This document shows positions 12-42,811 of a DNA stretch of 43,247 nucleotides, one piece after another (the first letter of the stretch is position 1; the number at the start of each line of letters is the position of its first letter). The position numbers were made by a program, and so were the translations under genes. This DNA is from Candidatus Caldarchaeales archaeon (GTDB lineage: Archaea; Thermoproteota; Nitrososphaeria_A; Caldarchaeales; Calditenuaceae), in assembly GCA_032249095.1 (NCBI GenBank), contig JAVVGN010000006.1:1-43247 (forward strand). The letters are read 5' to 3'. The notes below the pieces were generated by a model that saw only the letters and a list, made by a program, of their open reading frames with translations, ran no database searches and had not been told where the DNA came from.

Positions 12-210
12 TGTGAGCCACTGTCGGCTAAAGCCGACAGCTTCTTGCAGGCACGACGCCGACGAGAGGTTGGCGCCCCTGCGGGCTCGCTCCGAGCCCA
101 ACTTGCTGGGCGGCTCTCTAAGCCTGCCCGATAAAATTATAACGCAACCGAAAGAGAGGCGCATTCCCCTGTCGCCTAAAGGCGACAGTCCCTTGCGCCC
201 GTTTTCTATG
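12..210 (-). mobile_element. Miniature non-autonomous IS200/IS605-type element, subfamily A copy M1 (LE hairpin + TATAAT + omega-RNA-like RE scaffold, no ORF)
   Basis: The reverse complement aligns with both ends of the tnpA-tnpB element at 2676-4416. LE: CATAGAAAACGGGCGCAAGGGACTGTCGCC vs CATAGTAGAACGGGCGCAGGGGACTGTCGCC. RE: GGGCTCGGAGCGAGCCCGCAGGGGCG...GCTGTCGGCTTTAGCCGACAGTGGCTCACA vs 4329-4416. LE hairpin at 169-188; TATAAT on the minus strand at 136-141. Confidence 0.65.
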
Positions 211-390
211 GCTGGATCCACTTATATTTTCACCACTCAGACAGGATAGAAGACTGTGCTTTCTACAGGCTTGTTTTCCGGTTTTCGCCAAATAGGCGTC
301 GGTGGCATTGGGAAGTTATCCGTTTCGGCGACTATCCACCCAAGCCGTGGCGGACAAAAGTTACAGGCTCAATCAAAGAAAACCCGATAG

Positions 391-2675: not shown

Positions 2676-2796
2676 CATAGTAGAACGGGCGCAGGGGACT
2701 GTCGCCTTGCTGGCTATCGCCAGCACAGGGGAATGCGCCCCCACCGTCCTTTCGCCGAGGAATTATATTGCTGGATGCGTTATAATTAAATAGTGG

Positions 2797-3222
2797 GTGA
2801 GCAGTATGTTGGAGAAACAACAAGGCGAACGATGGGCTGTCCACTACGGTGGTGTTTGCGAAATTCGCTATCACTTCGTTTGGTGCCCAAAATACCGCCG
2901 TCCTATCCTCGCGGGTTTGGTGGCAGAGAGACTTAGACAATTGCTGGAGGAGCGCGTTGCTATGCTTGGTGGCGAAGTTATAGAAATCGCCATCCAGCCT
3001 GACCATGTGCACCTTTTCCTTCGCTTGCATACTCCTTATCTTGCACCTGCTCAAATTGCTTACCGCCTTAAGGGTTATACAAGCAGAATATTGCGGAAGG
3101 AGTTTCCAGAGTTGCGCCGCCGCTTGCCGACCTTGTGGAGCCGCTCCTATTATGTTGGCACTGTTGGACAGGTTAGCAAGGAAATAGTTGAAAGATATAT
3201 TGCGTCGCAAAGGGGGCGTTAG
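2797..3222 (+). CDS. tnpA: IS200/IS605 family Y1 (HUH) transposase TnpA
   Basis: Contains YHFVWCPKYRRPIL, the HUH motif HVHLF, and the C-terminal SYYVGTVG catalytic-Tyr region. Size about 140 aa. Start is GTG 2797 or ATG 2806. Confidence 0.9.
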   Translation: MSSMLEKQQGERWAVHYGGVCEIRYHFVWCPKYRRPILAGLVAERLRQLLEERVAMLGGEVIEIAIQPDHVHLFLRLHTPYLAPAQIAYRLKGYTSRILRKEFPELRRRLPTLWSRSYYVGTVGQVSKEIVERYIASQRGR

Positions 3223-4497
3223 TTGTTGAAACTTACTTATCAATATAAACTCAAACCAACCAAAACACAAAGCAGGCTGCTGTGGCAGTTTTTGGCAATA
3301 TCGTGTCAAATCTACAATGATGCCCTTAAGGAACGAAAAGAGGCTTGGGAAACCGAGCGCCGAACCGTCACCTATCAAGAACAAGCCCTCAAACTTAAGG
3401 ATTTGCGGGCAACCGATAAAGAACTGGCGCTCCTTAACTTTTCCGCCTGCCAACATGTCTTGCGCCGCCTTGACAAAGCCTTTAAACGCTTCTTTAATGG
3501 GCTGAAGAAAGGCGAGAAAGTGGGCTACCCCCGCTTCAAGAAACCCCACCGTTTCAGGACTTTGGAGTTTACCTACGGCGACGGCACAAAGATTATGCCC
3601 GATGAGAAAGGAAGGTTGCGGTTGTATGTCCAAAATGTCGGTTTGATTAAGGTTATCTAGCATCGCCCGTTGCCCGAAGGAGCGGTCATCAAACAAGTGT
3701 GGGTTACCCTTAAGGCTGATGGTTGGTATGCTACATTTGCTTTGGAAGTGCCCGACGAGGCTGTCAGGAAACCCTTGCTAAAGACAGAAAAAGCCGTCGG
3801 GATAAATGTCGGTTTGGAAAACCTTTTGGCGCTTTCTGACGGAACGCTGATAGATAACCCCAAGTGGTTTAAGGCAACCGAGGAAAAGATTGCCCTTAAG
3901 CAACGAATACTCAGCAAGAAGGTTAAGGGTTCTAAGAGATGGCGAAGGATGTGTCGGCAAATTGCTAAGTTGCATCTTAAGGTTGCCAGACAAAGGCGGG
4001 ATTTCTATTTCAAATTGGCAGGTTGGCTCGTGAGGGAGTTTGACCTTATCGCCGTTGAGGATTTGAACACTAAGGGTTTGGCGCAAGGGATTTGTAGTAA
4101 GGGTGTGCACGATGCCAGTTGGGGCATTTTCCTTAACCAAATCCTGCCTTACAAGGCTTGGAGCGCTGGTAAGGCAGTGGTTAAGGTTAGCCCCAACGGC
4201 ACTTCCCAATATTGTGCTATGTGTGGCGCTTGTGTGCCGAAAGACCTGTCCGAGCGTCAACATTGTTGCCCGCATTGCGGTTTCGTGACGCATCGTGACA
4301 TCAACTCCGCAATCTTAATCCTTAAGATGGGCTTGGAGCGAGCCCGCAAGGGCGCTGGTTTCACACTAGCGTCGTGCCTGCAGGAAGCTGTCGGCTTTAG
4401 CCGACAGTGGCTCACAGTAGAAGAGGATGATGTGACAAGAAAAGTGGAAAAACTCCTAAAGGCAATAGACGCCCTGCTAAGGAGACTTCAGAGTTAA
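3223..4497 (+). pseudogene. tnpB: TnpB (OrfB_IS605, RuvC + zinc ribbon) with one in-frame TAG at 3658-3660; the reading frame continues past the IS right end into flanking gene sequence
   Basis: N-terminus LKLTYQYKLKPTK. The two ORFs 3223-3660 and 3670-4497 share a frame and are separated only by TAG. Zn ribbon CAMCGACVPKDLSERQHCCPHCG followed by HRDINSA. The TTG start overlaps the tnpA stop. Confidence 0.8.
4329..4416 (+). ncRNA. Conserved 3' part of a putative TnpB omega-RNA scaffold (the 5' limit is not determinable here)
   Basis: This segment overlaps the tnpB 3' end and is conserved in the ORF-less mini copies. Stems GGGCTTG/CGAGCCC and CTGTCGGC/GCCGACAG vary between copies by substitutions that keep pairing only as G:U in this transcript sense. 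Confidence 0.5.
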
Positions 4498-4519
4498 TTT
4501 CGGCGCCGAAATTAACTCT
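4490..4519. repeat. 30-bp perfect palindrome AGAGTTAATTTCGGCGCCGAAATTAACTCT, copy 1 of 5
   Basis: Exact palindrome. It contains the TAA stop of ORF 3670-4497 and lies between convergent genes. Confidence 0.9.
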
Positions 4520-4541
4520 AAAACGATGGAGTTATGCTCTC

Positions 4542-7844: not shown

Positions 7845-8102
7845 GTGGCCAATGTTATCAAAGGAAGAACGGATTTTGTAGTCATCTCCCAAACAAAAAA
7901 GTTCTATCGGATGCAGGATGCAGTCATCGACGGGCTAATCAATGTACTGTCGGAAACGATAAAGTGGCTGGAAGGTGTAAGGGGCAAAGCCTCCATCAGC
8001 GGGGTCATTCTCTCCTGGATCAATGATCTTCAAGAATGGGAAGTAATGATTACCTTCCGCGAACTGAGCCCAGAGGAACCGGTAACGAACGCGAAGAGTT
8101 AA
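7845..8102 (+). CDS. Small hypothetical protein (the start may be ATG 7911)
   Basis: The ORF ends with its TAA inside palindrome copy 2, as ORF 3670-4497 does in copy 1. Confidence 0.45.
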   Translation: MANVIKGRTDFVVISQTKKFYRMQDAVIDGLINVLSETIKWLEGVRGKASISGVILSWINDLQEWEVMITFRELSPEEPVTNAKS

Positions 8103-8124
8103 TTTCGGCGCCGAAATTAACTTT
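8095..8124. repeat. 30-bp palindrome, copy 2 of 5 (29/30 match, ...AACTTT)
   Basis: AGAGTTAATTTCGGCGCCGAAATTAACTTT, located between convergent genes. Confidence 0.9.
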
Positions 8125-8180
8125 TGAAAGGCGCGCCAATCCCAGCGGAAGGGAAAGATGTAACTTGACCCCCTCCTTTC

Positions 8181-8468: not shown

Positions 8469-8644
8469 TCCATCCGAAGTAGGTGCAACATCTATCGCTG
8501 CCCTGCAATCCTCACAAGTCGGAATATAATCCCATTCACTATCGTCAAAAATATCTTAATTCCATATGTAATTTTAACCTTTTTGGTAGCCGAGGAGAAT
8601 TGTCTTGATTCTTAAGCAAACCGATTGCCCCAGATTTGGGCTCA

Positions 8645-8720
8645 CGCAGTGGCGATAGCCAGCACATGGGTTCAAACCCCATCAGGGCAATCCGTCAGAT
8701 TCAGCCGACGGTAGGTGACC
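8645..8720 (+). mobile_element. Deletion remnant of a subfamily-B mini IS605-type element (LE hairpin joined to the last ~55 nt of the RE scaffold)
   Basis: GTGGCGATAGCCAGCACA plus TGGGTTCAAACCCCATCAGGGCAATCCGTCAGATTCAGCCGACGGTAGGTGACC. This aligns with 14160-14177 and with TGGGTTTAACCCCCACACGGGCAAGCCGCCGGCTTTAGCCGACGGTAGCTGACA at 14303-14357. Confidence 0.5.
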
Positions 8721-11777: not shown

Positions 11778-14074
11778 CCGACCGAGAGCTAGCTGAAGCA
11801 ATGGAACGACTGAGGCAGGCAATAGTTTCAACTCCGTCCACCCTCGATAAGGAGCTGGCAAAAGCAGATGCCGCCATTGCACCAACACTAAATGAAACCT
11901 TTGCTATGCAAATGCTTGAGAAAGCATTGCCGCCCGTCCCAACCACTCTTATTACTACCAACCTGGATGAAGCCAGCCAGCGTCTAGTAGAGCAGGTTTG
12001 GAACCTAATGCTATCTGGGCGGTCAACGCGGGTTCGCCGGAGTTGGCATGTTAACTTTATCTTGCTCCGCCGATTGTCTTGGCTCAACCCCATCATCCGT
12101 CCCGCTATCAACCTCATAAGACAAGAATTGCGCCAACTCAACTGGGAAATCGTCCCGCTAAAGCCCGAAGCGAAAGGAAGAGTTTTATTAGCCCACAGGT
12201 TACTTTTGAACCCTCACCCGCTACTTTCGTGGGGCGAATGGCTGGATAAAATGGTAGAAGATAGCCTCGCTCTGGACGCCGCAGCATCCGAAGTTTGGTC
12301 GGCAAGATACATACCTTTTACGATCACTTACCCCCAACTCGTCTTGCCCCAACTGGAAGAGAAAAAGAAGAAGCCAGAAATGCCCGCTGCCCCGCAGCAA
12401 GCCCCGCCTGACCTGGAAGAACTCATCGGATTGGCGGGGGGAATGCGGAAAGAATTAGCATCTTCTTTACTCCATACCAAACGTATGGCGGAATTAGTTA
12501 TTAAAGAGAGATTGTTTTGGTTGGAAGAGTGCGGGCTGGTTAAGTCAACGACAGACATTTACCGATATATTGACGCGATGTGTAACCGATTGTCTAAAGC
12601 GAGAGACCTGCTGGAAGCCCACGAAATCATGGTCGCCGAAAGCCCATCCGTCCTGCGCAAAACCTTCGGGGGCTCCGAGGAAGAGTTGAACAAAGCGGCG
12701 CTTAGCGTCAGCGAACCAAGCCTAATCCCCTACCCGATGGATTTGCCCCTAGCGCTTATCCCCGTGCCTGGCGAACAGATTGAGTTCCAGGGAGATATTT
12801 ATACACTGGTTTTAGACCCTTACTTCCCCTATTTGCGCGTGGTAAACGGCGTTATCATGCGGGCTTATCAGCGACACGAACTAATGTATGTCAAGGAAAA
12901 CCCTCGCACTTGGAGTTTCTACGGGCTCTCGCCGATTGAATGTGTCATTATCGTCGCCCACGTCATGCTCTACGCCCACGATGTTCAGTTTAGATATTTC
13001 TTGACGGGCGCTGTGCCAGCAGCCGTGATCGGCGTCGTCGGCGCTGGAGATGTCTCTGAAATTCGGGCTTACTTAAACGAGGTTGCACGGGGTAAACAGG
13101 AAGCCATCGCCGTCCTCGGCATCCCGCCACAAGGCAACCTCATCGTCCAGCGCCTCGCCGAAACCAACCGAGAGTTGCAATACATTCAACTGCTGGAATG
13201 GTATGCCCGACTAATTTCTATCGCCTTCGGTCTCCAACCCTGGGAACTGGGCATCCTCTCTGGCGGAACACCGTCCCGCAGGATGCTTCGGCAAAGACCA
13301 GGCATTTACGGACGATTTATCACCTGGGAAAATGCCATCAACCATCACATCATCTACCGAGGTTTTAAACTGGCACCCCACCGAGACGCAGTCTTCAGGT
13401 TTGTGAACAAAGACATCGGCGACTTCAATGAGGAATCACAAGCCGTAACCAACTTGGTTGAACGGGGAATTATCACCAGAAACGAAGCGCGGCACAGACT
13501 TGGTTACCCACCCCTCGTTGGCGGGCTGCCCGACCACGCCTACACCGTCGCTGGTCAAGCGCTGTTGCTCCATGGAAAAGCCCCGCCTGTTGGCACAGAG
13601 GGCGAGCCGCCTGAAATCCCACCCATTCCCAGCCCCGTCGGCTTCTGGGTGCCGCCCCCCGTGGGGGGCATAAGCGCCGCTATGGCAGCAGGGGGGCGAG
13701 GTGGGGGTGGAGGCGGTGCTGGTGGCGGTCTTGCGGGGCTGCTCGGCTTGGCGAAATCTCTCATACCTACCCCTACTACGGTTTCTTTAGAAAAATGGAG
13801 TGACGAAATTCAAATTGCTTTGAAACTCTTTGCCAGAGCAATGGTCGCTGGGGGAGAAGTTACTCATTGGCGGGAGGGTATCGCGCTCGGCATCGCCATC
13901 AAAGATGCACTGGAAAAGCAGCTAAAGCGCCAAATTACGGACGGAGAGTGGATTGCGACGCTCCGCCAAATTCTGGATTTTCTCTGGAAAACCAAGTGGG
14001 CGAAGGAATGGGATGAGCTAATGCTTAAAATGGTAGACATTACCGACTTGCTCAAACCACCAGACAACAGATAA
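11774..14074 (+). CDS. Putative portal-like virion protein with a Gly-rich C-proximal linker
   Basis: 766-aa ORF. The call rests on size, on an N-proximal segment (NPIIRPAINLIRQELRQLNWEIVP) reminiscent of portal families, and on context. I cannot verify it without a profile search. Confidence 0.4.
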   Translation: MTDRELAEAMERLRQAIVSTPSTLDKELAKADAAIAPTLNETFAMQMLEKALPPVPTTLITTNLDEASQRLVEQVWNLMLSGRSTRVRRSWHVNFILLRRLSWLNPIIRPAINLIRQELRQLNWEIVPLKPEAKGRVLLAHRLLLNPHPLLSWGEWLDKMVEDSLALDAAASEVWSARYIPFTITYPQLVLPQLEEKKKKPEMPAAPQQAPPDLEELIGLAGGMRKELASSLLHTKRMAELVIKERLFWLEECGLVKSTTDIYRYIDAMCNRLSKARDLLEAHEIMVAESPSVLRKTFGGSEEELNKAALSVSEPSLIPYPMDLPLALIPVPGEQIEFQGDIYTLVLDPYFPYLRVVNGVIMRAYQRHELMYVKENPRTWSFYGLSPIECVIIVAHVMLYAHDVQFRYFLTGAVPAAVIGVVGAGDVSEIRAYLNEVARGKQEAIAVLGIPPQGNLIVQRLAETNRELQYIQLLEWYARLISIAFGLQPWELGILSGGTPSRRMLRQRPGIYGRFITWENAINHHIIYRGFKLAPHRDAVFRFVNKDIGDFNEESQAVTNLVERGIITRNEARHRLGYPPLVGGLPDHAYTVAGQALLLHGKAPPVGTEGEPPEIPPIPSPVGFWVPPPVGGISAAMAAGGRGGGGGGAGGGLAGLLGLAKSLIPTPTTVSLEKWSDEIQIALKLFARAMVAGGEVTHWREGIALGIAIKDALEKQLKRQITDGEWIATLRQILDFLWKTKWAKEWDELMLKMVDITDLLKPPDNR

Positions 14075-14099
14075 AAAGAAAAAGGAGATATAATATAAG

Positions 14100-14358
14100 G
14101 GCAGGTTGCAGTCGACCTCGCAGGGTTTCACAGAGAGTGGCAGCAGGAGGCTTTCGCCTTGCTGGCGATAGCCAGCACAGAGGAATGCCGCCTTTACACC
14201 TCCTTTCAGTTACGTTATAATTGTAATTAGTGATTGAAAGAGCGTCTGCCCCTAACATAAGGTTAGGGGCTCGGGCTGCCGTCAGCCAGCCCCAGATGCT
14301 CGGTGGGTTTAACCCCCACACGGGCAAGCCGCCGGCTTTAGCCGACGGTAGCTGACAG
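14100..14358 (+). mobile_element. Subfamily-B mini IS605-type element (LE hairpin + TATAAT + diverged omega-RNA-like scaffold)
   Basis: TCGCCTTGCTGGCGATAGCCAGCACAGAGGAATGCCGCC aligns with TCGCCTTGCTGGCTATCGCCAGCACAGGGGAATGCGCC at 2702-2738. ACGTTATAATT (TATAAT at 14216-14221). The 3' end is GCCGGCTTTAGCCGACGGTAGCTGACAG, against GTCGGCTTTAGCCGACAGTGGCTCACAG in the full element. The left limit is approximate. Confidence 0.55.
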
Positions 14359-14361
14359 GGT

Positions 14362-14913
14362 ATTTCGCGACGACATGGGTAAGGTGGAAATATAAAAAGG
14401 GGTATAATAATAGGAGGAGGTCGCAGCCGACAACGCAGGATGTTTCGCGACAGTATAGGTAAGGTGGAAAGTGGAAAGGCATGGTAGGCATTTGTTGGAG
14501 CAATGGGAATGCAGTTTCGCGACAACATGAGTGTGGTGGAAAGAAACTTGGCAGAGTTGGCAGAGATGGGTTCGCGACAACATGAGTGTGGTGGAAAGAT
14601 AACTTCGTCCCTCACCCGAAGAGAAGGGTGAGGAGGTTTCGCGACGACATGAGTGGAGTGAAAAGCAAAGGGATGCCAGCGTTTCGCGACAACGCAAGTA
14701 TGGCGGAAGGTGGAAAGAAGGTGGAAAGTCAACCTGCCATTGGTCGTTTTGTGGTTTCGCGACGACATTGGTAAGGTGGAAAGGCATTCATTGTGGGCGA
14801 GGATGATGACAACGTTTCGCGACAACACGAGTAAAGTGGAAAGGAAGGCGGCGCACTTGCAAGGCGAAGAAGGCGGGTTGATAGCTTCGCGACAACAAGA
14901 GTGTGGTGGAGGG
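14362..14913 (+). repeat. Array of nine direct 30-bp repeats, consensus GTTTCGCGACRAC-N8-GGTGGAAAG (CRISPR-like termini, irregular spacing)
   Basis: Unit starts: 14362, 14442, 14514, 14569, 14636, 14681, 14754, 14814, 14884. The TTCGCGAC core is invariant. The 3' GTGGAAAG is mostly conserved and the centre is variable. Gaps between units are 50, 42, 25, 37, 15, 43, 30 and 40 nt. Confidence 0.85.
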
Positions 14914-14939
14914 GAAAGTATAATATACACGGACGGCGC

Positions 14940-14969
14940 AGAGTTAATTTCGGCGCCGAAATTAACTCT
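14940..14969. repeat. 30-bp perfect palindrome, copy 3 of 5
   Basis: Exact AGAGTTAATTTCGGCGCCGAAATTAACTCT. It lies between the repeat array and the AAGGAGG RBS of ORF 14988. Confidence 0.9.
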
Positions 14970-14987
14970 AAGGAGGATGGAAAGAAG

Positions 14988-15281
14988 ATGGCAACGCTTC
15001 GGAGTTGCTTCTTTGCGTACACTCACCAGATGGCGGGCGCTAACTTGGACGAGGAGGTAAAAATCGTCCGCCTAAAGCGGGTGGATACCGACGTTGAGGT
15101 GATAGTGTGCGAAGCGTGTGCGGGGAGATTACTATCAACGGGGAACTTTGTTGTCGTAGAAGAGTTTCGCGACGACATGGATAGAATGGAAAGCATAGAG
15201 CCCGTCGCCTTGCAAGACCTCTTGGATGAAGGAACGACAGTTGAGGATGTCAGCGACGACGGCGGAGAAGGAAATTCTTGA
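14988..15281 (+). CDS. Small acidic protein (97 aa) containing repeat unit R10 in its coding sequence; paralog of the IS-interrupted gene 2481/4417
   Basis: AAGGAGG at 14970-14976. ...FVVVEEFRDDMDRMESIEPVALQDLL resembles ...FVLVNNETHHIEF|VEEDDVTRKVEKLLKAIDALL. At DNA level GTAGAAGAG occurs at 15156-15164 and at 4417-4425. Confidence 0.5.
   Translation: MATLRSCFFAYTHQMAGANLDEEVKIVRLKRVDTDVEVIVCEACAGRLLSTGNFVVVEEFRDDMDRMESIEPVALQDLLDEGTTVEDVSDDGGEGNS
15164..15193 (+). repeat. Tenth copy (R10) of the 30-bp repeat, inside ORF 14988-15281
   Basis: GTTTCGCGACGACATGGATAGAATGGAAAG. It shares 16 contiguous nt (TTTCGCGACGACATGG) with R1. Confidence 0.8.
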
Positions 15282-16884
15282 AGCGGAAGAAGTCGTCGGA
15301 GCATACCTTTTCCTTCACCCAGAAGCCCTACATATCCCATACAGCCTGCGGGCGCTAAACTACCGCGCCCGCAATCCGCATTTCAAGGAATTACTGGAAG
15401 TTGCCTCGGCAGGGCTATCTGGGGGCGGGGTCAATTTCCGTGCCCACCTATCACCAGACAGCTATCGGTTCTGGAATGACAAATCTTTCTCATTAAGCCT
15501 CTCCCCAACTCACTACGAACAAGTCGCTGATGCCCTGCTCTTCCTCTGCGATGTCGCCCGATATGACTCTCTGCGTACTACCCTAAACGACCTCGCAAGA
15601 AATCTAACCCCCCACAATGTGACCGAAACAATACACTCCCTCTTGGAGCGGACAGCGAGCGTCCTGCACAGTACCAACTGGCGCATTCAATCGGGTAGCC
15701 TCTTGCAGGAGCAATACACAGCACGACTACGCAGCATCTACGAAACCAAGAACTTGCCCCTCTATAGTCACATCCAATTTCTGGACGGTCACGACATTTT
15801 CTTCCCACGCCGAGAATACACCCTCATATCTGGACGAACGGGCTCGGGGAAGACGAGCGTAGCGTGCATCCTAACCTACAACCTCCTTTTCTCGCACGAA
15901 AGGAATGACAGCCACGCAGCACCCCGCCCCCTTAACGTCCTCTACATTTCCTTAGAAGTGCCTTCAGAAGCCATTCTCGCCAAAATCCTTGGCACCTTCA
16001 CCCACAGGTACATCCTCAAGCGCGCTCCGGCAGGCGAACTCCCGCAATTTAGCGACGATGAAATCAAAACCCTAAAGCACTTTGGCTGGAACGATTTTTA
16101 CGCTAAAACCACACCCGAAAAATTTGAATTGACAATGAAGGTCTTAGACGTCTTCAGGGAGAAAGTTGGTGATAGACTGTCTATTTACCATAGCCCTGTC
16201 CTCACTGGCGACGATGTCGTTTTGTTAGTTACATCAAAAGCGCTAGAGCTTGCCGCCGATGGACAAACGCTGGATGTCGTGATCATTGACTTCATTCAAA
16301 ATCTAAGGACTCGCAGTGAAGCAAAGGGGCAAGGAAAAGAGGGGGCATCCCTGTCCCGCGAGATAGGCCACACCATTCAAGAACTCCAGCAAGTATTTAG
16401 CCGATTTGAAATTTGCGGAATAGTTCTATCGCAAGTTAATGACATGGGTGAAGTGCGAGACAGCCGTGTCCTCGAACACCTCGCCGCCGTCCACATCCGC
16501 ATAGGAAATTACTATCGGGATTTCTCTCCTTTGTTTGAAAGATACCTGCGGGGGAGTGGAAAATTTAAGGATGGGAAACCTGTCGATCGTGCCTCCGCAA
16601 GACAACTGGCAGAGACCTTCAACGATATCGCTCAAAAGCTCCCAAACAAGAAACTGCTGGATATTTCTGTCTCTAAAAACCGCTACGGCGATGAGATCAG
16701 AACTCCTCAGATTCTTATGTGGCGCCCTGCCATACCCCTCATAGTGCGAGGCTTCGAGATAGCCGAAGCGATCAAACATCTGGAAGAAGAGCAAGCTAAA
16801 AAGTCGCCAAAGAGTACCACAGAGGAAACGCCGACCCTTGCAGAACCCGAAGATACTACCCCCATAGGTGACTATCCCTTTTAA
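15226..16884 (+). CDS. DnaB/RepA-like replicative helicase (RecA-fold ATPase); the start may be ATG 15247
   Basis: Walker A SGRTGSGKTS, Walker B VVIIDFIQNL, and a GIVLSQVN (SQxN) motif typical of the DnaB C-terminal domain. Confidence 0.75.
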   Translation: MKERQLRMSATTAEKEILEAEEVVGAYLFLHPEALHIPYSLRALNYRARNPHFKELLEVASAGLSGGGVNFRAHLSPDSYRFWNDKSFSLSLSPTHYEQVADALLFLCDVARYDSLRTTLNDLARNLTPHNVTETIHSLLERTASVLHSTNWRIQSGSLLQEQYTARLRSIYETKNLPLYSHIQFLDGHDIFFPRREYTLISGRTGSGKTSVACILTYNLLFSHERNDSHAAPRPLNVLYISLEVPSEAILAKILGTFTHRYILKRAPAGELPQFSDDEIKTLKHFGWNDFYAKTTPEKFELTMKVLDVFREKVGDRLSIYHSPVLTGDDVVLLVTSKALELAADGQTLDVVIIDFIQNLRTRSEAKGQGKEGASLSREIGHTIQELQQVFSRFEICGIVLSQVNDMGEVRDSRVLEHLAAVHIRIGNYYRDFSPLFERYLRGSGKFKDGKPVDRASARQLAETFNDIAQKLPNKKLLDISVSKNRYGDEIRTPQILMWRPAIPLIVRGFEIAEAIKHLEEEQAKKSPKSTTEETPTLAEPEDTTPIGDYPF

Positions 16885-28084: not shown

Positions 28085-28954
28085 ATGGGGAGGTATAAAT
28101 TTAGGATGCTGACAACTGCCGCCATCGCCGCCGTCCTAATAGAAAAAACCAATACCAGCATACCATGGGAGTGGCAGATACTTCTATGGGGGTGGCTCTT
28201 CCTCGCCGCTGTCAAGGAATATCACTACAGCGACATTTTGTTCCTCATAGATGTAGCGTTGTTCATTGCTCTCTCCACTTTTTGCCCCGCATTGCTACCG
28301 TTAGGAACGGACGCACTGGTCATCGCCGCCCTCTTTACCCTCCTCAAGAGAGCCTCCCTCAATACCGACCAACTACTACAGAAGCATACCAAGTGGATAA
28401 CCGCTCTCCTAATAACCCTCGTCCTATTGGACGTTTTCCTTGTTATTGCCGTCTACCCTCGCATAAAACAGCTAGCCCTCCACTTCACTATCCCAGCCTA
28501 TATAAGCGGGCCAAGAGTGGGGGAGTGGTTTCCCATTTTAGGCAGCGGGGATTACCTCGTAGCAGGCACTCTAATGTCCCTTCTTAATATGCGCTGGCTT
28601 CAAGCGTGCGCTGCCCTTACTATTGCCCTCTTAGCTTGCTTTTACCTTCCAGACGCCATTAGCCAATGGCTACAATTCATACCAGCCCTCCTTTTTATAG
28701 TGCCTTCCTTCCTTTTCGTTTGGTTTCTATGTACTAATATCTCTAAGAGACTCCCGAAACAAACCGAACCCCTTCCGCTAGTCTCTGGCAGAGGCGCTTG
28801 GGGGCTTTACTATCTCGCTATGCAGCGCCAAAATAAGACAAGCGGAGGTGACACGAGGACAGCGCCTGTCGCTGACGTGAGCGACGAAGGACTGTCCGAC
28901 GCCTGTGAGCTGCCATCGGCTAAAGCCAACAGCTTTTTGCAGGCACGACGCTGA
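28085..28954 (+). CDS. Polytopic membrane protein (about 7-8 TM helices); the last ~17 codons are read from mini-element M2
   Basis: Repeated hydrophobic segments (for example LFLAAV.., LFIALSTFCPALLPLG, ITALLITLVLLDVFLVIAVY, FIPALLFIVPSFLFVWFL). The frame enters element M2 at 28904. Confidence 0.6.
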   Translation: MGRYKFRMLTTAAIAAVLIEKTNTSIPWEWQILLWGWLFLAAVKEYHYSDILFLIDVALFIALSTFCPALLPLGTDALVIAALFTLLKRASLNTDQLLQKHTKWITALLITLVLLDVFLVIAVYPRIKQLALHFTIPAYISGPRVGEWFPILGSGDYLVAGTLMSLLNMRWLQACAALTIALLACFYLPDAISQWLQFIPALLFIVPSFLFVWFLCTNISKRLPKQTEPLPLVSGRGAWGLYYLAMQRQNKTSGGDTRTAPVADVSDEGLSDACELPSAKANSFLQARR

Positions 28955-29109
28955 CTTAAAGTCAGCGCCCCTGCGGGCTCGCTCCGAACCCAAGCCATCG
29001 GGCGGCTCTCTAAGCCTGCCCGATAAAATTATAACGCGAGAGCAAGGAGGTGAAAGGGCGCATTTACCTGTCGGCTAAAACCGACAGCTCCCTGCGCCCA
29101 GTTTTTATG
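28904..29109 (-). mobile_element. Miniature non-autonomous IS200/IS605-type element, subfamily A copy M2
   Basis: Collinear with 12-210 and with both ends of 2676-4416. LE hairpin 29068-29087. TATAAT on the minus strand at 29028-29033. RE end ...GCTGTTGGCTTTAGCCGATGGCAGCTCACA (minus sense). Confidence 0.65.
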
Positions 29110-29493
29110 GCAAATCAGAAACTTTTCGAAGCTAGTCCCACCGAAACGGGTATCGTGAAAATCGTGTGGCGACTGGACAGCGTAGGCTCAGGCGGAATGA
29201 ATTCAAATGCCATTCCTTTATATGTCACTAACAGAAAGCTGGTCATTTTGGGGGTGAGCGGAACCGCAACTGTCACGATAAAACTTTACGCTGACCTGCG
29301 AGATGTCCCAGCGGCGCCCAACGATTTCCCGCCAGCGGGAATTGCCCTTCTAGGCACATTGGGACCTTACTCTCTGTCGCCTGACACAGCAATCGTTGAG
29401 AACTTTCCGCTATATGCGGACTTCGCCGAGCCAACGGTATCCAATATCGGAGGCACATTCGTTGCCTATGCCATTATCGAAGGAGCACTTTGA
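29107..29493 (+). CDS. Small hypothetical beta-rich protein (129 aa)
   Basis: ATG 29107-29109 coincides with the terminal CAT of element M2. The longer GTG-initiated ORF from 29050 would be translated from element sequence. Confidence 0.5.
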   Translation: MANQKLFEASPTETGIVKIVWRLDSVGSGGMNSNAIPLYVTNRKLVILGVSGTATVTIKLYADLRDVPAAPNDFPPAGIALLGTLGPYSLSPDTAIVENFPLYADFAEPTVSNIGGTFVAYAIIEGAL

Positions 29494-29749: not shown

Positions 29750-29764
29750 AATCCTTCGGATGCT

Positions 29765-29794
29765 AGAGTTAATTTCGGCGCCGAAATTAACTCT
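29765..29794. repeat. 30-bp perfect palindrome, copy 4 of 5
   Basis: Exact copy between convergent genes. Its last base is also the first base (29794) of the polA stop-codon complement. Confidence 0.9.
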
Positions 29795-32352
29795 TAAATC
29801 CCCCTGCGCCGAAACGGAGAAAGATGTAACTCCTCCATCAGCTGGACGCCCCGTTCGGCAAGACCTGCCCTCCACATAGCGGTAACCCCCAAAGGTTGCT
29901 TCTCACCTTCATCTCCCAATGATTGATAGCAAAAACGAAATTCACCATCTATCGGAACAGCCAACTGCCATCGCGCCGATACAAGGGTCATCGCGTCCCG
30001 CAAGCATTCCAAGGCTTGTTCTTCGCAGCCCACCCGCACTTCTGCCAGCATACTATCGTGGATGGTAGCGAGAAGAGCGACGGCATCCGACCCTAACCGC
30101 TTATAAGAGAGGCGGACGAACCAGAGCGTCACCATCTGCCACCAATCCGATGCTTCCGACTGAATGACAAAGTTACCTATCTGACGAAGGGCACGGGGGT
30201 CCCCCCGCACGGCGGCATAGGCACGCCGATATCTCCCAAGCCAATTTCGCACGAACCCGTGTTGTTTCCCAAACGCGTGTACCGCCTCCATATAGCGGAA
30301 GACCTCAGGATAATGGTCGCGCAACCGACTAATGTAAAGATTGGCTTCCTCCTCAGGCAGGCGCAAAAGGCGCGCCAACCCAAAAGGAGACATCCCGTAA
30401 AAGATACCGAGGACGACTTGCTTCGCTATCTGCCTCTCTCTTTTACGGTCAATCTCTTCGGGAGGTTTCCGAAAGATAATGCTCGCCACCTCCGTATAAA
30501 CATCGTTTCCGCTGTAAAAAGCCTCTATCAGATTCGGGTCGCCACTTTTTGCCGCCATCACACGGACTTCAAACTGAGAGGCATCACATTCCAAAAAGCA
30601 ACAGCCTGAAGTGGGAACGAAAATTCGGCGAGCCTGCCGGCCCGATTCCGTCCGCTCCGAGGGGAAGTTGTGAAAGGGAGGCTCTTCAACAGACAAACGC
30701 CCAGTCCGTGTTCCGAAGAATTTGAATTCGGGGCGAATGCGCCCGTCTATATCTACGAATTTCGTCCACTGGCGCAAATAGGATGAATAAAGCTTGTCCA
30801 ACTGCGAGAACTCTATCAAGCGAGAGAGAATTTCAGAGTGCTCAGGGTAATGCTCAAGGAAATACGACAAAACTTGCCGACGGGTCGTCTCGTCCCCCCC
30901 TTCAGGCGGCTGCAACCGCAACACCTGATATAGGTAGTATTTCTTCTCTTGCCAGCTGCGCGGGTTCTTGATGTGTCCCTTCGACAACTGCCTTATCTCC
31001 ACCGTAAGGGCGTCCAACCGCTGGCGGACAATATTTGCAATATCCTTCCGCAACAGGTCGGTATTGACCCCAATCCCTCGGTCGGAAGCAACGGCATAGA
31101 GGCACTCTAACGGATAAATCAATTCCGAAAGGAGAAAATCTAAGTCAGCCTCCCGAATTTGCGCCTGCAGATAGTGATAAAGTCGCACCGTCCAATAAGC
31201 GTCATTAGCATTATATCGGCACAGTTCGTCCCACGACAACTTTCCAAGTCCAGCGGTGCGACGAGCCTCCTGCACACGATCATCTACCCACGAAGGGGCG
31301 CCGAGCAGGCGCATAGCCATATTTTTGAGCCCATACTCATGGTCATCCCGTTCCTCATCCAACACATAATACATCAACATCGTATCAGCGAAAGACCGAG
31401 GCGACGGCACAGCCCCCCAAAGGCGATGGAACCACATCAATTCAAAGAGGGCGTTGTGATAAACCTTGCGAGGCACCGTGCGGAAAATGAGATCGCGCAA
31501 GGGCGAAAGGCGGGGAAAGTCCAGAAGACCATCCTTATCTGCAATAACAACCGTCCGGTCCCCATCCGACAGCCCCACTGCAAGTACCTGCGCCGCTTTC
31601 GTCTTCCCCCGCGTCACCAGCTGGTAACCCCGATAAGCAGGGTCGACGACATCCACCTCAATATCACAAGCAATCACCTCGCGCTCAGAGAAATACCGGC
31701 AGACATCTTCCACTTCCGCGGGAGTGCTTACTACCTCATAGCTAAATGGCGGGACAGCACCACCAGCAGCCGCCAGCCGCCGCTTTACGGAAATAAGTGT
31801 GTCGGTAATCGGCCCCCACAAATTGGGGTTTCGGACAGCAGCGGCTGGATGATAAGTCCAACAAACCCATATCCCGCGCCACTGGACAAATTCACCGTGC
31901 GGCGGTCTCTTCACCCGAATAGCCCTAAAAAACTCGCCTGCGGCAATCGCCCCCAAAAGGCATATATATTGAGGTCGGTACTTCTGGATTTCCTTCATAA
32001 GGTTAATTGAGCAACATTTAGCAGCTGCTCTTAACATCTCATCACTAACATTTGTTTCTGGTAAGATTACACACTTGATAATGTTTGTTAAAATGGAATG
32101 ATCCCAAAGACCGATATCCTGAAGTTTTTCCGCAAACATCTCGCTGCTATAGCCGACGAATGCCATTTCCTTCTCCATCTCCTCCTTTGCTGGGTGTTGC
32201 CCGACAAACAAAATGATGGGTTCACGAAGGACTTTCGGCTGACGCACCGTCGTCACTTGCTTCGGCGAAAGTTGCCTTTGCCAGATCGGGCATGACGGGC
32301 AATTGTCACAGATGACAGGCAAGCGCCCATCTTCCGCGCCGATGTAAAGCAT
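29794..32352 (-). CDS. polA: Family A DNA polymerase with 3'-5' exonuclease and an N-terminal UDG (family 4)-like domain
   Basis: UDG-like: CDNCPSCP..ILFVGQHPAKEEMEKEMAFVGYSSEMF..LTNIIKCV. Exo I: IACDIEVD. Pol motif A: DASQFEVRV. Motif B: RERQIAKQVVLGIFYGMS. Motif C: ATIHDSMLAEV. Confidence 0.9.
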   Translation of the reverse strand: MLYIGAEDGRLPVICDNCPSCPIWQRQLSPKQVTTVRQPKVLREPIILFVGQHPAKEEMEKEMAFVGYSSEMFAEKLQDIGLWDHSILTNIIKCVILPETNVSDEMLRAAAKCCSINLMKEIQKYRPQYICLLGAIAAGEFFRAIRVKRPPHGEFVQWRGIWVCWTYHPAAAVRNPNLWGPITDTLISVKRRLAAAGGAVPPFSYEVVSTPAEVEDVCRYFSEREVIACDIEVDVVDPAYRGYQLVTRGKTKAAQVLAVGLSDGDRTVVIADKDGLLDFPRLSPLRDLIFRTVPRKVYHNALFELMWFHRLWGAVPSPRSFADTMLMYYVLDEERDDHEYGLKNMAMRLLGAPSWVDDRVQEARRTAGLGKLSWDELCRYNANDAYWTVRLYHYLQAQIREADLDFLLSELIYPLECLYAVASDRGIGVNTDLLRKDIANIVRQRLDALTVEIRQLSKGHIKNPRSWQEKKYYLYQVLRLQPPEGGDETTRRQVLSYFLEHYPEHSEILSRLIEFSQLDKLYSSYLRQWTKFVDIDGRIRPEFKFFGTRTGRLSVEEPPFHNFPSERTESGRQARRIFVPTSGCCFLECDASQFEVRVMAAKSGDPNLIEAFYSGNDVYTEVASIIFRKPPEEIDRKRERQIAKQVVLGIFYGMSPFGLARLLRLPEEEANLYISRLRDHYPEVFRYMEAVHAFGKQHGFVRNWLGRYRRAYAAVRGDPRALRQIGNFVIQSEASDWWQMVTLWFVRLSYKRLGSDAVALLATIHDSMLAEVRVGCEEQALECLRDAMTLVSARWQLAVPIDGEFRFCYQSLGDEGEKQPLGVTAMWRAGLAERGVQLMEELHLSPFRRRGI

Positions 32353-41176: not shown

Positions 41177-42754
41177 ATGGACTTGGTAACCATTAACGCC
41201 AGTTACATGACGGTCAAAATACCGATAAGCGACCGAGAGCAATGGGAGAACCTTCTTACCGTAGCAGATAAGCACCTGATAGCCCTGCCTAAAGATGTCA
41301 TCCCGCCAGCCGCCATCGGTTGCCCCCAACATGCCGTTTTCGACCCCAACCATGCCCTCTGCTGGATCCACTATCGCCCCTACAACCAGTATCGCCTCTA
41401 CAGAATGTGGATGGAAGAAGGACATCTCCTCTTTAGACTGCCTATCGGCGGCGTCATCCTGCTTCTTTCAAAGGCAAAAGAAGAATTAGATAACGATGTC
41501 CACCAAACCATCCGCCAATACCTTGTTGCTAATTACCCGCGCAAGGACCTTCTTTCTTTCGACCCCTTAAAATTCCCCGTAGAGCTTTACCCTTACCAAA
41601 TCAAAGCAATAACGGGGGCGATAAACTACAGAAGAGCCATCGTGTCCGCCCCGCCAGGGTCCGGTAAGACAGAAATTGGGAGCGCCCTTATCGCCTCGAT
41701 GCCCGCCCACTGGCAAGTAGGGTGGTTTACTCACACTCGGACACTTCTCCGCCAATCTCAAAACCGCCTGCTAAAAAATCTGCGCGAACCTATCGGCGCC
41801 ATCAGCGGAGAGGATAGCTTTGACCCCAGACGAGTTACCGTTGCGATGGTGCAAACCATAACAAGAAGAGGACAAGAAAAGAATGACCCCAACATCATTG
41901 CATGGCTCCGTTCGTTAGACGCCATCATACTAGATGAAGCGCATCACGCCCCAGCAAAAACTTTCTATTGGACACTGATGAGCTGCACCAAAGCATGGGT
42001 CAGATTTGGTCTAACCGCCACGCCAATGCGGGAGGAAGGTGAAGAGGAAATCTATATGTGGTGCGCTATTTCCCCCCTCATCGTGGAAGTCAACCCACAC
42101 GAATTAGTCGCCGTGGGAAGACTCGTCCCAATAGAACTAATCGTCTACGATTTAGAAGGAACCGTTGAATACAAAGGCAATTACCGAAATTGGCAAGATG
42201 AATACATGGATCAAATCGTCAGAAATAAAATCAGAAACTACATCATCGCAGCAGAAGCTATCATAAACCGCCCATCCGTTATCCTCGTCTGGGCTATTGA
42301 ACATATCCAGCATCTATTGGACGCCATTCAAAATCTATCCAAGAAATACAACATCGAGGTAAAGGTTGCAGCCCTTCACGGCGAAACAAAGAGCCACGAC
42401 AGACAAATCGCATTGCAGCAGTTTGAGACGGGTCAAATCGACATCCTTATCATCTCCGACGTCGGTAAGGAAGGGTTGAACATTATTAACATAAGAAACC
42501 TCATCGTGGCAGCCGGACAGAAAAGTAAAGTCGCCGCCATCCAACGGGTTGGACGAGGAATGCGCCCCAAAAAATGGGGGTTCGTCAGAGTTGTAGACTT
42601 CTACGACTCAGGAGACGTAACCCGCCGTCACTCCTTCCGGCGGATCAGGATATACCAGCAAATGCTTCCTGTAGCCAGGGTTAAGAGAATACCTGCTGAA
42701 GAGGGCATACGGCAACTAATTCAAGAGCTGAAAGGCGGCGCGGCGCTCTTATAA
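41177..42754 (+). CDS. SF2 DEAH-box helicase (ResIII-type)
   Basis: Walker A SAPPGSGKT, DEAH box ILDEAHH, then TATP, then motif VI QRVGRGMR. Confidence 0.85.
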   Translation: MDLVTINASYMTVKIPISDREQWENLLTVADKHLIALPKDVIPPAAIGCPQHAVFDPNHALCWIHYRPYNQYRLYRMWMEEGHLLFRLPIGGVILLLSKAKEELDNDVHQTIRQYLVANYPRKDLLSFDPLKFPVELYPYQIKAITGAINYRRAIVSAPPGSGKTEIGSALIASMPAHWQVGWFTHTRTLLRQSQNRLLKNLREPIGAISGEDSFDPRRVTVAMVQTITRRGQEKNDPNIIAWLRSLDAIILDEAHHAPAKTFYWTLMSCTKAWVRFGLTATPMREEGEEEIYMWCAISPLIVEVNPHELVAVGRLVPIELIVYDLEGTVEYKGNYRNWQDEYMDQIVRNKIRNYIIAAEAIINRPSVILVWAIEHIQHLLDAIQNLSKKYNIEVKVAALHGETKSHDRQIALQQFETGQIDILIISDVGKEGLNIINIRNLIVAAGQKSKVAAIQRVGRGMRPKKWGFVRVVDFYDSGDVTRRHSFRRIRIYQQMLPVARVKRIPAEEGIRQLIQELKGGAALL

Positions 42755-42783
42755 GAGTTAATTTCGGCGCCGAAATTAACTCT
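42754..42783. repeat. 30-bp perfect palindrome, copy 5 of 5
   Basis: Exact copy. Its first base is the last base (42754) of the helicase TAA stop. It ends 28 nt upstream of the next ATG. Confidence 0.9.
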
Positions 42784-42811
42784 AGCCCCTGACCGCAAAG
42801 GGGAGGCACCC

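Follow-up and report, generated by a model that had tools for sequence, protein, structure and literature searches.

The locus

The 43,247-nt stretch analysed here (contig JAVVGN010000006.1, positions 1 to 43,247; hereafter the window) is an incomplete phage contig, the right edge of which falls within an open reading frame (ORF). It carries one full-length element of the IS200/IS605 family, composed of a left end (LE), the transposase gene tnpA, tnpB and a right end (RE), and several short copies in which LE and RE are joined without the genes. We refer to the latter as minis. They are probably deletion derivatives of this family, of the type termed palindrome-associated transposable elements (PATEs), which are mobilised by TnpA and have kept an omega RNA (ωRNA) scaffold for a TnpB nuclease acting in trans. 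The features are as follows.

2679–4415, plus strand: full IS200/IS605 (IS605-group) element with LE, tnpA, tnpB and RE; CCAT at 2675–2678
2797–3222, plus strand: tnpA, specifying a Y1 (HUH) transposase (Pfam Y1_Tnp, 6e-35), apparently intact
3223–4410, plus strand: tnpB pseudogene with the domains HTH_OrfB, OrfB_IS605 and Cas12f-TNB
4321–4415, plus strand: RE and predicted ωRNA scaffold of the full element
13–207, minus strand: mini1, a 195-nt ORF-less LE+RE element
208–211, minus strand: CCAT target or transposon-adjacent motif of mini1, directly 5' of its LE
188–169, minus strand: LE hairpin of mini1
141–136, minus strand: TATAAT of mini1
129–108, minus strand: S1' of mini1, a hairpin specific to the minis
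99–83, minus strand: S2 of mini1
82–47, minus strand: outer stem and variable hairpin S3 of mini1
40–21, minus strand: terminal hairpin S4 of mini1, with a UUUA loop at -20..-17
20–13, minus strand: tail of mini1
28905–29106, minus strand: mini2, 202 nt long, likewise an LE+RE element without an ORF; it shares 79% identity with mini1 and has its TATAAT at 29033–29028
29107–29110, minus strand: target motif (CCAT) next to mini2; on the plus strand the same bases read ATGG and supply the start codon, and the G after it, of ORF 29107–29493
about 14122–14356, plus strand: mini3, another LE+RE copy without an ORF, which belongs to a divergent subtype; ends uncertain by about 6 nt
8566–8719, plus strand: decayed copy of the mini3 subtype, with CCAT (8562–8565) and the RE end GGTAGGTGAC retained

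Identity and layout of the minis

Positions 12–212 of the window align with 28904–29111 at 78.8% identity over 208 nt (E 7e-48). As the reverse complement, positions 12–104 match the RE of the full element (4416–4324; 85%, E 1e-25), and 179–211 match its LE (2708–2675; 91%). A preliminary description, made from the sequence alone, had presented 12–210 and 28904–29109 as minus-strand, ORF-less fusions of the two ends of the tnpA-tnpB element; the alignments bear this out, and its coordinates were nearly right, the ends given by the comparison of filled and empty sites differing from them by 1–3 nt. The count of two copies was incomplete, since mini3 and the decayed copy at 8566–8719 are also present. 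Mini3 combines the variant LE hairpin of the full element with a different RE body, scores 26 bits (E 0.002) with the covariance model described below, and has its junction within a 6-nt direct repeat, CAGGGT, which is non-canonical. From the decayed copy the LE hairpin has been deleted and the -10 box is gone.

The ends of the minis are homologous to LE and RE of the full element and bear subterminal hairpins, not terminal inverted repeats. The LE hairpin (CTGTCGCC-TTTA-GGCGACAG) lies 19 nt inside LE and the RE hairpin (CTGTCGGC-TTTA-GCCGACAG) 8 nt from the end of the element, distances that are as expected for IS200/IS605; the LE of the full element has a variant hairpin, TGCTGGC N4 GCCAGCA, as well as the TATAAT box. 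The sole ORF in these copies runs antisense across them, with about 78 codons in mini1 and 57, ending at an early stop, in mini2. Not being conserved between the two, it was rejected as a real gene.

Each mini would draw a guide from its own flank. That of mini2 is AGGCGTCGGACAGTCCTTCG, read leftward from 28904. The guide of mini1 is cut in the window, where the contig begins 12 nt past RE, and its full form, AATCCCCTCCGACTTCTTCCC, comes from L001, a metagenome contig that equals the window plus 2.85 kb more to the left. No second target of the guides was found within the window, except for the repeated unit to which the flank of mini3 belongs.

Ends, target motif and mobility

The exact ends of the minis were fixed by comparing filled and empty sites with related phage contigs. 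At the cleanest site the window is empty, GGAAAGAAG being followed directly by ATGGCAACG, while contig L095 has a 202-nt mini (L095b) between these same two sequences, with the junction at AAGAAG/ATGGCAACG. Insertion has occurred there after CCAT and without target duplication, and at the empty site of the window the 20 nt after CCAT agree with the L095b flank at 19 positions. The spans 13–207, 28905–29106 and 2679–4415 rest upon this comparison. CCAT precedes all 11 insertions compared; in the orientation of the element it is followed by A(A/G)A(A/G)AAC GGGCGCA at the left boundary, and at the right the element ends in GCTCAC next to the flank, that is, it terminates in TCAC.

A scan of metagenome DNA with the RE pattern gave only three loci, L001, L002 and L003, the latter two with two mini1-type copies each. 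The contigs L095–L097 formed the one cluster returned by a search of the protein collection in which the query was the spurious antisense ORF of the minis; this result proved decisive. They represent a related phage, 80% identical to 13463–14126 of the window and syntenic with it as far as 15079, which has two minis where the window has none and lacks mini3 at the syntenic site. Minis of type A occur in at least seven contexts over the window, L002, L003 and L095, and the mini1-type copies are 97–99% identical to each other in differing flanks. A search with the covariance model of the flanks of 90 genomic and metagenomic tnpB loci revealed no further minis.

A fixed motif, subterminal hairpins, presence/absence polymorphism and the lack of duplication at the L095b site are hallmarks of TnpA-mediated non-autonomous transposition. 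The minis are thus mobile, and the earlier characterisation of them as palindrome-associated derivatives resembling miniature inverted-repeat transposable elements agrees with their LE/RE homology, the near-identical copies in different surroundings, the polymorphic insertion at CCAT and the apparently intact tnpA.

Exchange between copies has probably left its mark on the right ends. The last 48 nt of the mini1 RE (12–59) and the corresponding positions of the full element (4369–4416) show 98% identity, with a TAG-to-TGG change in common, and the remainder is about 80% identical, which indicates mosaicism or gene conversion between copies. Contig L002 equals L001 up to the LE of a mini (99.97%) and continues with other sequence that ends in another mini, as would result either from recombination at repeats or from alternative assembly paths. 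In the relative L084 a second, partial RE-like hairpin (ATCGGCTCCAGCCGACAGCAGTTGAC, 1697–1740) directly follows the RE end, and in L085 (4497–4540 and 3200–3250) the RE flank repeats about 30 nt of the same element's LE; both patterns suggest nested or tandem insertions in these relatives.

tnpA and the tnpB pseudogene

The window codes for a full-length TnpA in which both the HUH and the Tyr motif are present and which can be matched over its entire length to the solved structures of the ISHp608 and ISDra2 enzymes. Its neighbour tnpB, judged against 14 relatives, has three defects. The codon of a near-invariant Trp146 has changed from TGG to TAG (3658–3660); AAT at 3805–3807 turns the RuvC-I motif into GINVG, the catalytic Asp being present in each of the 14 relatives (as GIDVG or a near variant); and TGG replaces the normal TAG stop at 4408–4410, allowing the frame to run on to 4497. 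The identical defective allele lies on an ENA contig from an independent sample (99.93% identity). Recoding of TAG was considered as a rescue of tnpB and rejected: TAG is an ordinary stop here, closing 9 of the 48 long ORFs, and neither a tRNA gene nor a suppressor tRNA was found in the window. Nor does the gene resemble a TldR-type, nuclease-dead TnpB repressor, for although the Asp-to-Asn change is present, the TAG at codon 146 and the lost stop point to decay and not to domestication.

With a pseudogene as the sole tnpB on the contig, any TnpB that serves the minis must act in trans. Intact TnpB relatives, 84–90% identical, occur on other metagenome contigs. The sample numbers of an 84% relative (P0010) are adjacent to those of L001 and L003, and an 87% relative is found on a 91.6-kb contig having a DnaJ-like gene and a mini-tmRNA module (a form of transfer-messenger RNA described below) in common with the phage. 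The closest kin of the protein come from hot-spring metagenomes and from metagenome-assembled genomes of Candidatus Fervidibacter, Chloroflexota and Thermus.

Insertion of the full element has split a small phage ORF (2481–2678 and 4416–4497) which has paralogues in L002 and L003. Deprived of its stop, the tnpB frame reads 27 downstream codons resembling the C-termini of these paralogues; on precise removal of 2679–4415 those codons would be one nucleotide out of frame with the upstream part of the ORF.

Conservation and covariation of the RE scaffold

Roughly the final 95 nt of RE, including the terminal TCAC, survive in the minis and are collinear with the right ends of 12 full-length relatives (TnpB identity 57–90%). 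An alignment of this segment was built from 18 sequences, namely the full copy of the window, five minis and the 12 relatives. Its four-helix structure leaves 95.9% of the cells paired, compared with 28–44% when the 3' partners are slid by 1–3 columns. Thirteen of the 29 pairs are changed on both sides, against 7.4 +/- 1.4 in shuffled alignments, none of 500 of which reached the observed value. The long middle hairpin, S3, covaries at all nine of its pairs and overlaps the part that would encode the hypervariable C-terminus of the protein. RNAalifold, applied to the full-length relatives alone, yields the same helices plus a weak extra helix upstream.

The structure is equally well kept where there is nothing to encode. 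Among the ORF-less copies alone 96.2% of the cells are paired (100% in S2, the outer stem and S4), with seven pairs changed on both sides, six of them within S3; it therefore persists where the tnpB reading frame no longer exists. Mini1 and mini2 differ at 20 positions, of which 7 fall among 76 paired positions and 13 among 45 unpaired ones (p 0.01), and six pairs have been changed and none broken. Minimum-free-energy folds reproduce the helices with z values of -4.0 and -6.4. All minis share, in addition, the 5' hairpin S1' (GGGCAGGC-TTARAGA-GCCGCCC), which the full-length elements do not have, and this points to one ancestral deletion derivative.

The preliminary description had argued for an RNA from, among other things, stem variants said to be compatible with G:U pairing only. 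The variants exist, both GGGCTCG, GGGCTTG and GGGTTCG opposite CGAGCCC and GCTGTCGGC..GCCGACAGTGGC versus GCTGTTGGC..GCCGATGGCAGC, but the restriction to G:U does not. Apart from the pairs that change on both sides, the alignment has 11 A.C cells beside 35 G:U cells, and between mini1 and mini2 a hairpin which that account did not list shows a change of C-G to U-A and, next to it, of A.C to G-C. Wobbles alone are in any case no proof of RNA, as G.T pairs are tolerated in single-stranded DNA hairpins. The same consideration applies to the LE hairpin: its three variants are present as described, yet it and the terminal RE hairpin are first of all DNA hairpins bound by TnpA, and their covariation is for this reason no evidence for RNA. 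When the recommended covariance model was built from the 18 sequences it recovered unseeded, more distant right ends at 28–50 bits.

The promoter box

The LE alignment of the window and the full-length relatives shows TATAAT to be a family feature, found 25–35 nt before the start codon of tnpA or tnpB. The relatives have TTGACA or TCGACA 17 nt upstream of it, and because of this spacing we regard it as a promoter belonging to the element itself. None of the seven mini sequences departs from TATAAT, in spite of many insertions and deletions in LE. As had been stated at the outset, the box points into the RE part on the minus strand in mini1 and mini2; in the minis generally it precedes the structured region of about 117 nt by 6–8 nt, and a start there would coincide with the foot of S1'. 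In mini3 the arrangement TTTACA-17-TATAAT (14193–14221) matches the σ70 consensus at 11 of 12 positions.

One conserved stretch of the LE, CACCTCCTT, has the same sequence as the 3' terminus of 16S rRNA. On the opposite strand it reads AAGGAGGTG, which forms a perfect Shine-Dalgarno sequence; beyond this come the long LE hairpin and the ATG. Both mini2 (LE 29034–29110) and L095b (L095 2400–2481) are inserted exactly at the ATG of an ORF on the opposite strand, and L095b parts this ORF from its own AAGGAGG. Conceivably AAGGAGGTG may act as an outward-facing ribosome-binding site which softens the cost of insertion.

Interpretation

Our preferred explanation remains that the minis are TnpA-mobilised PATEs which have retained an ωRNA scaffold. 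In this scheme the Y1 transposase, for which the apparently intact tnpA at 2797–3222 is the candidate source, would mobilise the minis in trans as single-stranded DNA, recognising the subterminal LE and RE hairpins on the top strand and inserting the copy directly 3' of CCAT. The -10 box would drive an RNA of about 117 nt, made up of S1', S2, the outer stem around the hypervariable S3, S4 with its UUUA loop and an 8-nt tail, and this structured RNA would serve the TnpB nuclease of the family as its ωRNA scaffold. As transcription continued into the flank, each copy would acquire a guide of its own. Once loaded onto a TnpB from another source, the transcript would target the allele that lacks the element (CCAT plus the flank) for cleavage, which would favour retention or spread of the copy. 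The nuclease would be provided by the host or a co-resident element, since the resident gene is dead. The minis most likely still encode ωRNAs; that they yield stand-alone guide RNAs, as first proposed, is plausible.

A number of observations weigh against this explanation. The resident tnpB is dead, and no intact tnpB was found in this phage. Mini2 has a poor -35 region, mini1 has lost its own by a 7-nt deletion, and a promoter scan reported nothing for either copy. A search of Rfam, in gathering as well as E-value mode, found neither ωRNA nor any other family on any copy. Two metagenome copies have a G-to-A change that breaks one pair of S1', and both S1' and the putative pseudoknot (see below) are otherwise invariant, so that covariation says nothing about either. 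The wobble bias fits hairpins in top-strand DNA equally well as RNA, given that TnpA acts on that same strand. Finally, some of the seemingly compensatory changes may stem from recombination and not from selection in place, for the RE segments are mosaic between minis and full copies.

Much of this could be accommodated if the minis were substrates of TnpA only, with hairpins that matter as single-stranded DNA or are merely inherited and with no functional guide RNA. We find this rather unlikely. The hairpins of IS608 are located about 19 nt and 10 nt from its ends, and the LE hairpin (19 nt) and S4 (8 nt) of the minis are similarly placed; the tolerance of G.T wobbles in DNA, the dead tnpB, the missing -35 elements of mini1 and mini2 and the mosaic right ends, which suggest recombination between copies, can all be read in the same way. 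TnpA is not known, however, to need S2, the outer stem, S3 or S1', and these stay paired in ORF-less copies that differ by 15–21%. Moreover, TATAAT is invariant in copies without any gene, the length and layout of the scaffold mirror those of a functional ωRNA, and the decayed copy at 8566–8719 demonstrates that copies free of constraint do lose such features. 

The preliminary description had gone further and envisaged a viral genome with one nuclease and many guides; on that reading the phage would run its own TnpB with the minis as suppliers, in the manner of a CRISPR array. The presence on one contig of tnpB and several scaffold-bearing copies with different flanks would accord with this, as would the intact TnpB of the 91.6-kb contig. 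For the present genome it is already contradicted by the nonsense codon, the catalytic Asp-to-Asn change and the lost stop of its only tnpB, by the recurrence of the defective allele in another sample (99.9%), by the normal use of TAG where no suppressor tRNA was found, and by guides which match nothing else in the window save the repeated unit at the flank of mini3; we consider it very improbable. Equally little credence can be given to the idea that the copies serve the phage, either as a portable ribosome-binding site or promoter for neighbouring genes or as sources of small regulatory RNAs unrelated to TnpB. The position of mini2 and L095b at a start codon, where the complement of CCAT supplies ATGG, and the Shine-Dalgarno sequence in LE speak for it. 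The mini1-type copies, on the other hand, have lost that motif and are nevertheless the most numerous; in the full-length relatives it sits between the -35 and -10 of the LE promoter, and it is some 60 nt from the ATG. That the repeat is a chance similarity or an assembly artefact is scarcely conceivable. Mini1 is 12 nt from the start of the contig, and L001 and L002 diverge exactly at the LE of a mini, as happens when assemblers break or switch at repeats; but the similarity within the window alone has an E value of 7e-48, and the same copies are present with clean junctions in independent JGI and ENA assemblies.

An extension of the preferred explanation, namely that ωRNA-bearing PATEs are RNA-guided homing cassettes which pass between related phages infecting the same cell, seems to us improbable, if less so than a private nuclease of this phage. 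The guide made by each copy would be directed at its own site in the element-free state (CCAT plus flank). A TnpB encoded by the host or a phage would cut rival genomes without the insertion, and the outcome would be either spread of the copy through repair or exclusion of the rival. The reciprocal presence and absence of minis in the window and in the L095–L097 phage, together with the 19/20 flank match, is compatible with such homing, and intact TnpBs, 84–90% identical, are available on related metagenome contigs.

Comparison with known systems

PATEs are ORF-less IS200/IS605 derivatives of haloarchaea, with PATE-like elements in Geobacillus stearothermophilus; according to Meers et al. (2023, PMC10055086) they "often encode ωRNAs", for which TnpB has to be supplied in trans. 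The minis resemble them in being short, ORF-less and multi-copy, in having cognate LE and RE with subterminal hairpins, in their probable dependence upon TnpA in trans, and in their position beside a short motif that does not vary, where the clean L095b site shows no duplication of the target. Unlike the PATEs of that study they are found on a bacteriophage genome of a hot-spring community and are polymorphic between related phages; they carry S1', which is absent from their full-length relatives; and the autonomous element that shares their genome combines an apparently intact tnpA with a dead tnpB.

The ωRNA of ISDra2 from Deinococcus radiodurans has a functional scaffold of 116 nt with four stems, a dispensable stem 3b, a pseudoknot of -5..-3 with -105..-103 and a UUUA tetraloop at -20..-17 (PMC10097598). 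In both systems the scaffold is at the 3' end of tnpB/RE and ends at the RE boundary, the guide comes from the flank, the loop of the last stem (S4 in the minis) is UUUA at exactly -20..-17, and a middle hairpin is variable or dispensable (stem 3b in the one, S3 in the other). The minis likewise have a 5' stem (S1', -117..-96), placed where ISDra2 has its stem 1, in which GAGC (-104..-101) is complementary to GCUC (-6..-3); this putative pseudoknot, like the match in layout, is a complementarity read off the sequence. There is no detectable sequence similarity, the covariance model misses the Deinococcus loci, the TnpB proteins are only about 37% identical, and the target is CCAT here and TTGAT there. 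The mini RNA, moreover, is a prediction from DNA.

An ORF-less element of IS200/IS605 type has also been described in the archaeal tailed virus HRTV-DL1, where a 489-bp, single-copy PATE shared with the host is the most strongly transcribed region (PMC10544981); that study did not analyse a link to a TnpB scaffold or guide. The minis differ in belonging to a bacterial system and in being present in several copies with mapped ends beside a resident full element.

Several different guides on a viral genome near a TnpB-type gene are known also from phage mini-CRISPR arrays and from the CRISPR-like arrays reported beside tnpB in Thermus "Lalka" phages (PMC11437467). The minis, unlike these, are dispersed over 29 kb, take each guide from the flank of a separate transposon copy, and show neither repeat-spacer structure nor acquisition machinery. 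A CRISPR array or multi-guide locus with a resident nuclease is thus not what is found here, the insertions being dispersed and the sole effector-type gene broken.

One region with repeats does lie next to a mini. At 14362–15198 on the plus strand, and also in L095 (about 640–2000), there are at least 10 copies of a unit of about 30 nt, GTTTCGCGAC-RACAYGRGTRDRG-TGGAAAG, which are 63–83% identical and spaced 45–118 nt from start to start, with one gap of 280 nt. They are upstream of a DnaB-like helicase gene (15226–16884); mini3 abuts the first unit, and the copy L095a lies inside one. In appearance the units are closer to iterons or an origin region than to a CRISPR array. The possibility of an array fed by the mini3 scaffold was considered and rejected in view of the divergent units, their irregular spacing and, on reading, the lack of resemblance to the 3' part of the scaffold.

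Other features of the phage contig

The window codes for a portal protein, a DnaB-type helicase, a family-A DNA polymerase, a clamp and a further helicase. The polymerase is about 25% identical to those of known phages, which makes them remote kin only. Neither the RE pattern nor the mini-specific pattern nor the polymerase had a match in IMG/VR, from which this phage lineage is evidently absent, and blastn of positions 1–230 against GenBank phages gave no match.

A 107-nt RNA gene on the plus strand (1726–1832) scores 93 bits against the Rfam tmRNA model. It has the acceptor stem, T-arm, ACCA end and helix 2, while the mRNA-like and pseudoknot part (273 model positions) is swapped for a 9-nt loop, leaving a tmRNA reduced to its tRNA-like domain; ARAGORN did not call it. 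A short tmRNA-like element is also present on the 91.6-kb contig (L099, about 600–700), beside an ORF for a DnaJ zinc finger that is 77% identical. The gene could be a decoy for SmpB or AlaRS, or a relic of an attachment site. 

A perfect palindrome of 30 nt, AGAGTTAATTTCGGCGCCGAAATTAACTCT, stands at gene ends five times in the window (4489–4521, 8094–8126, 14939–14971, 29764–29796 and 42753–42785) and is kept in related phage contigs (L002 3830–3858; L095 2228–2257). It is probably a bidirectional terminator or the binding site of a regulator.

Significance

ORF-less IS200/IS605 derivatives that keep an ωRNA have been published, and the minis are not new in kind. What the locus offers is a mapped bacteriophage case, with exact ends, the CCAT motif, filled and empty sites and a covariance model of the scaffold. 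An ωRNA structure without an overlapping tnpB frame separates constraint on RNA or DNA structure from constraint on coding. The putative natural minimal scaffold, with about 117 nt, a replaced 5' stem and its own -10 box, may be of interest to those who trim ωRNAs for genome editing with TnpB proteins of thermophiles. Novelty in kind would attach only to the idea that RNA guides bring about homing between co-infecting phages. If true, it would constitute an RNA-guided counterpart of the free-standing homing endonucleases of T-even phages, and if TnpB-mediated homing does operate in this way, the present pair of phages would be a direct test system for it.

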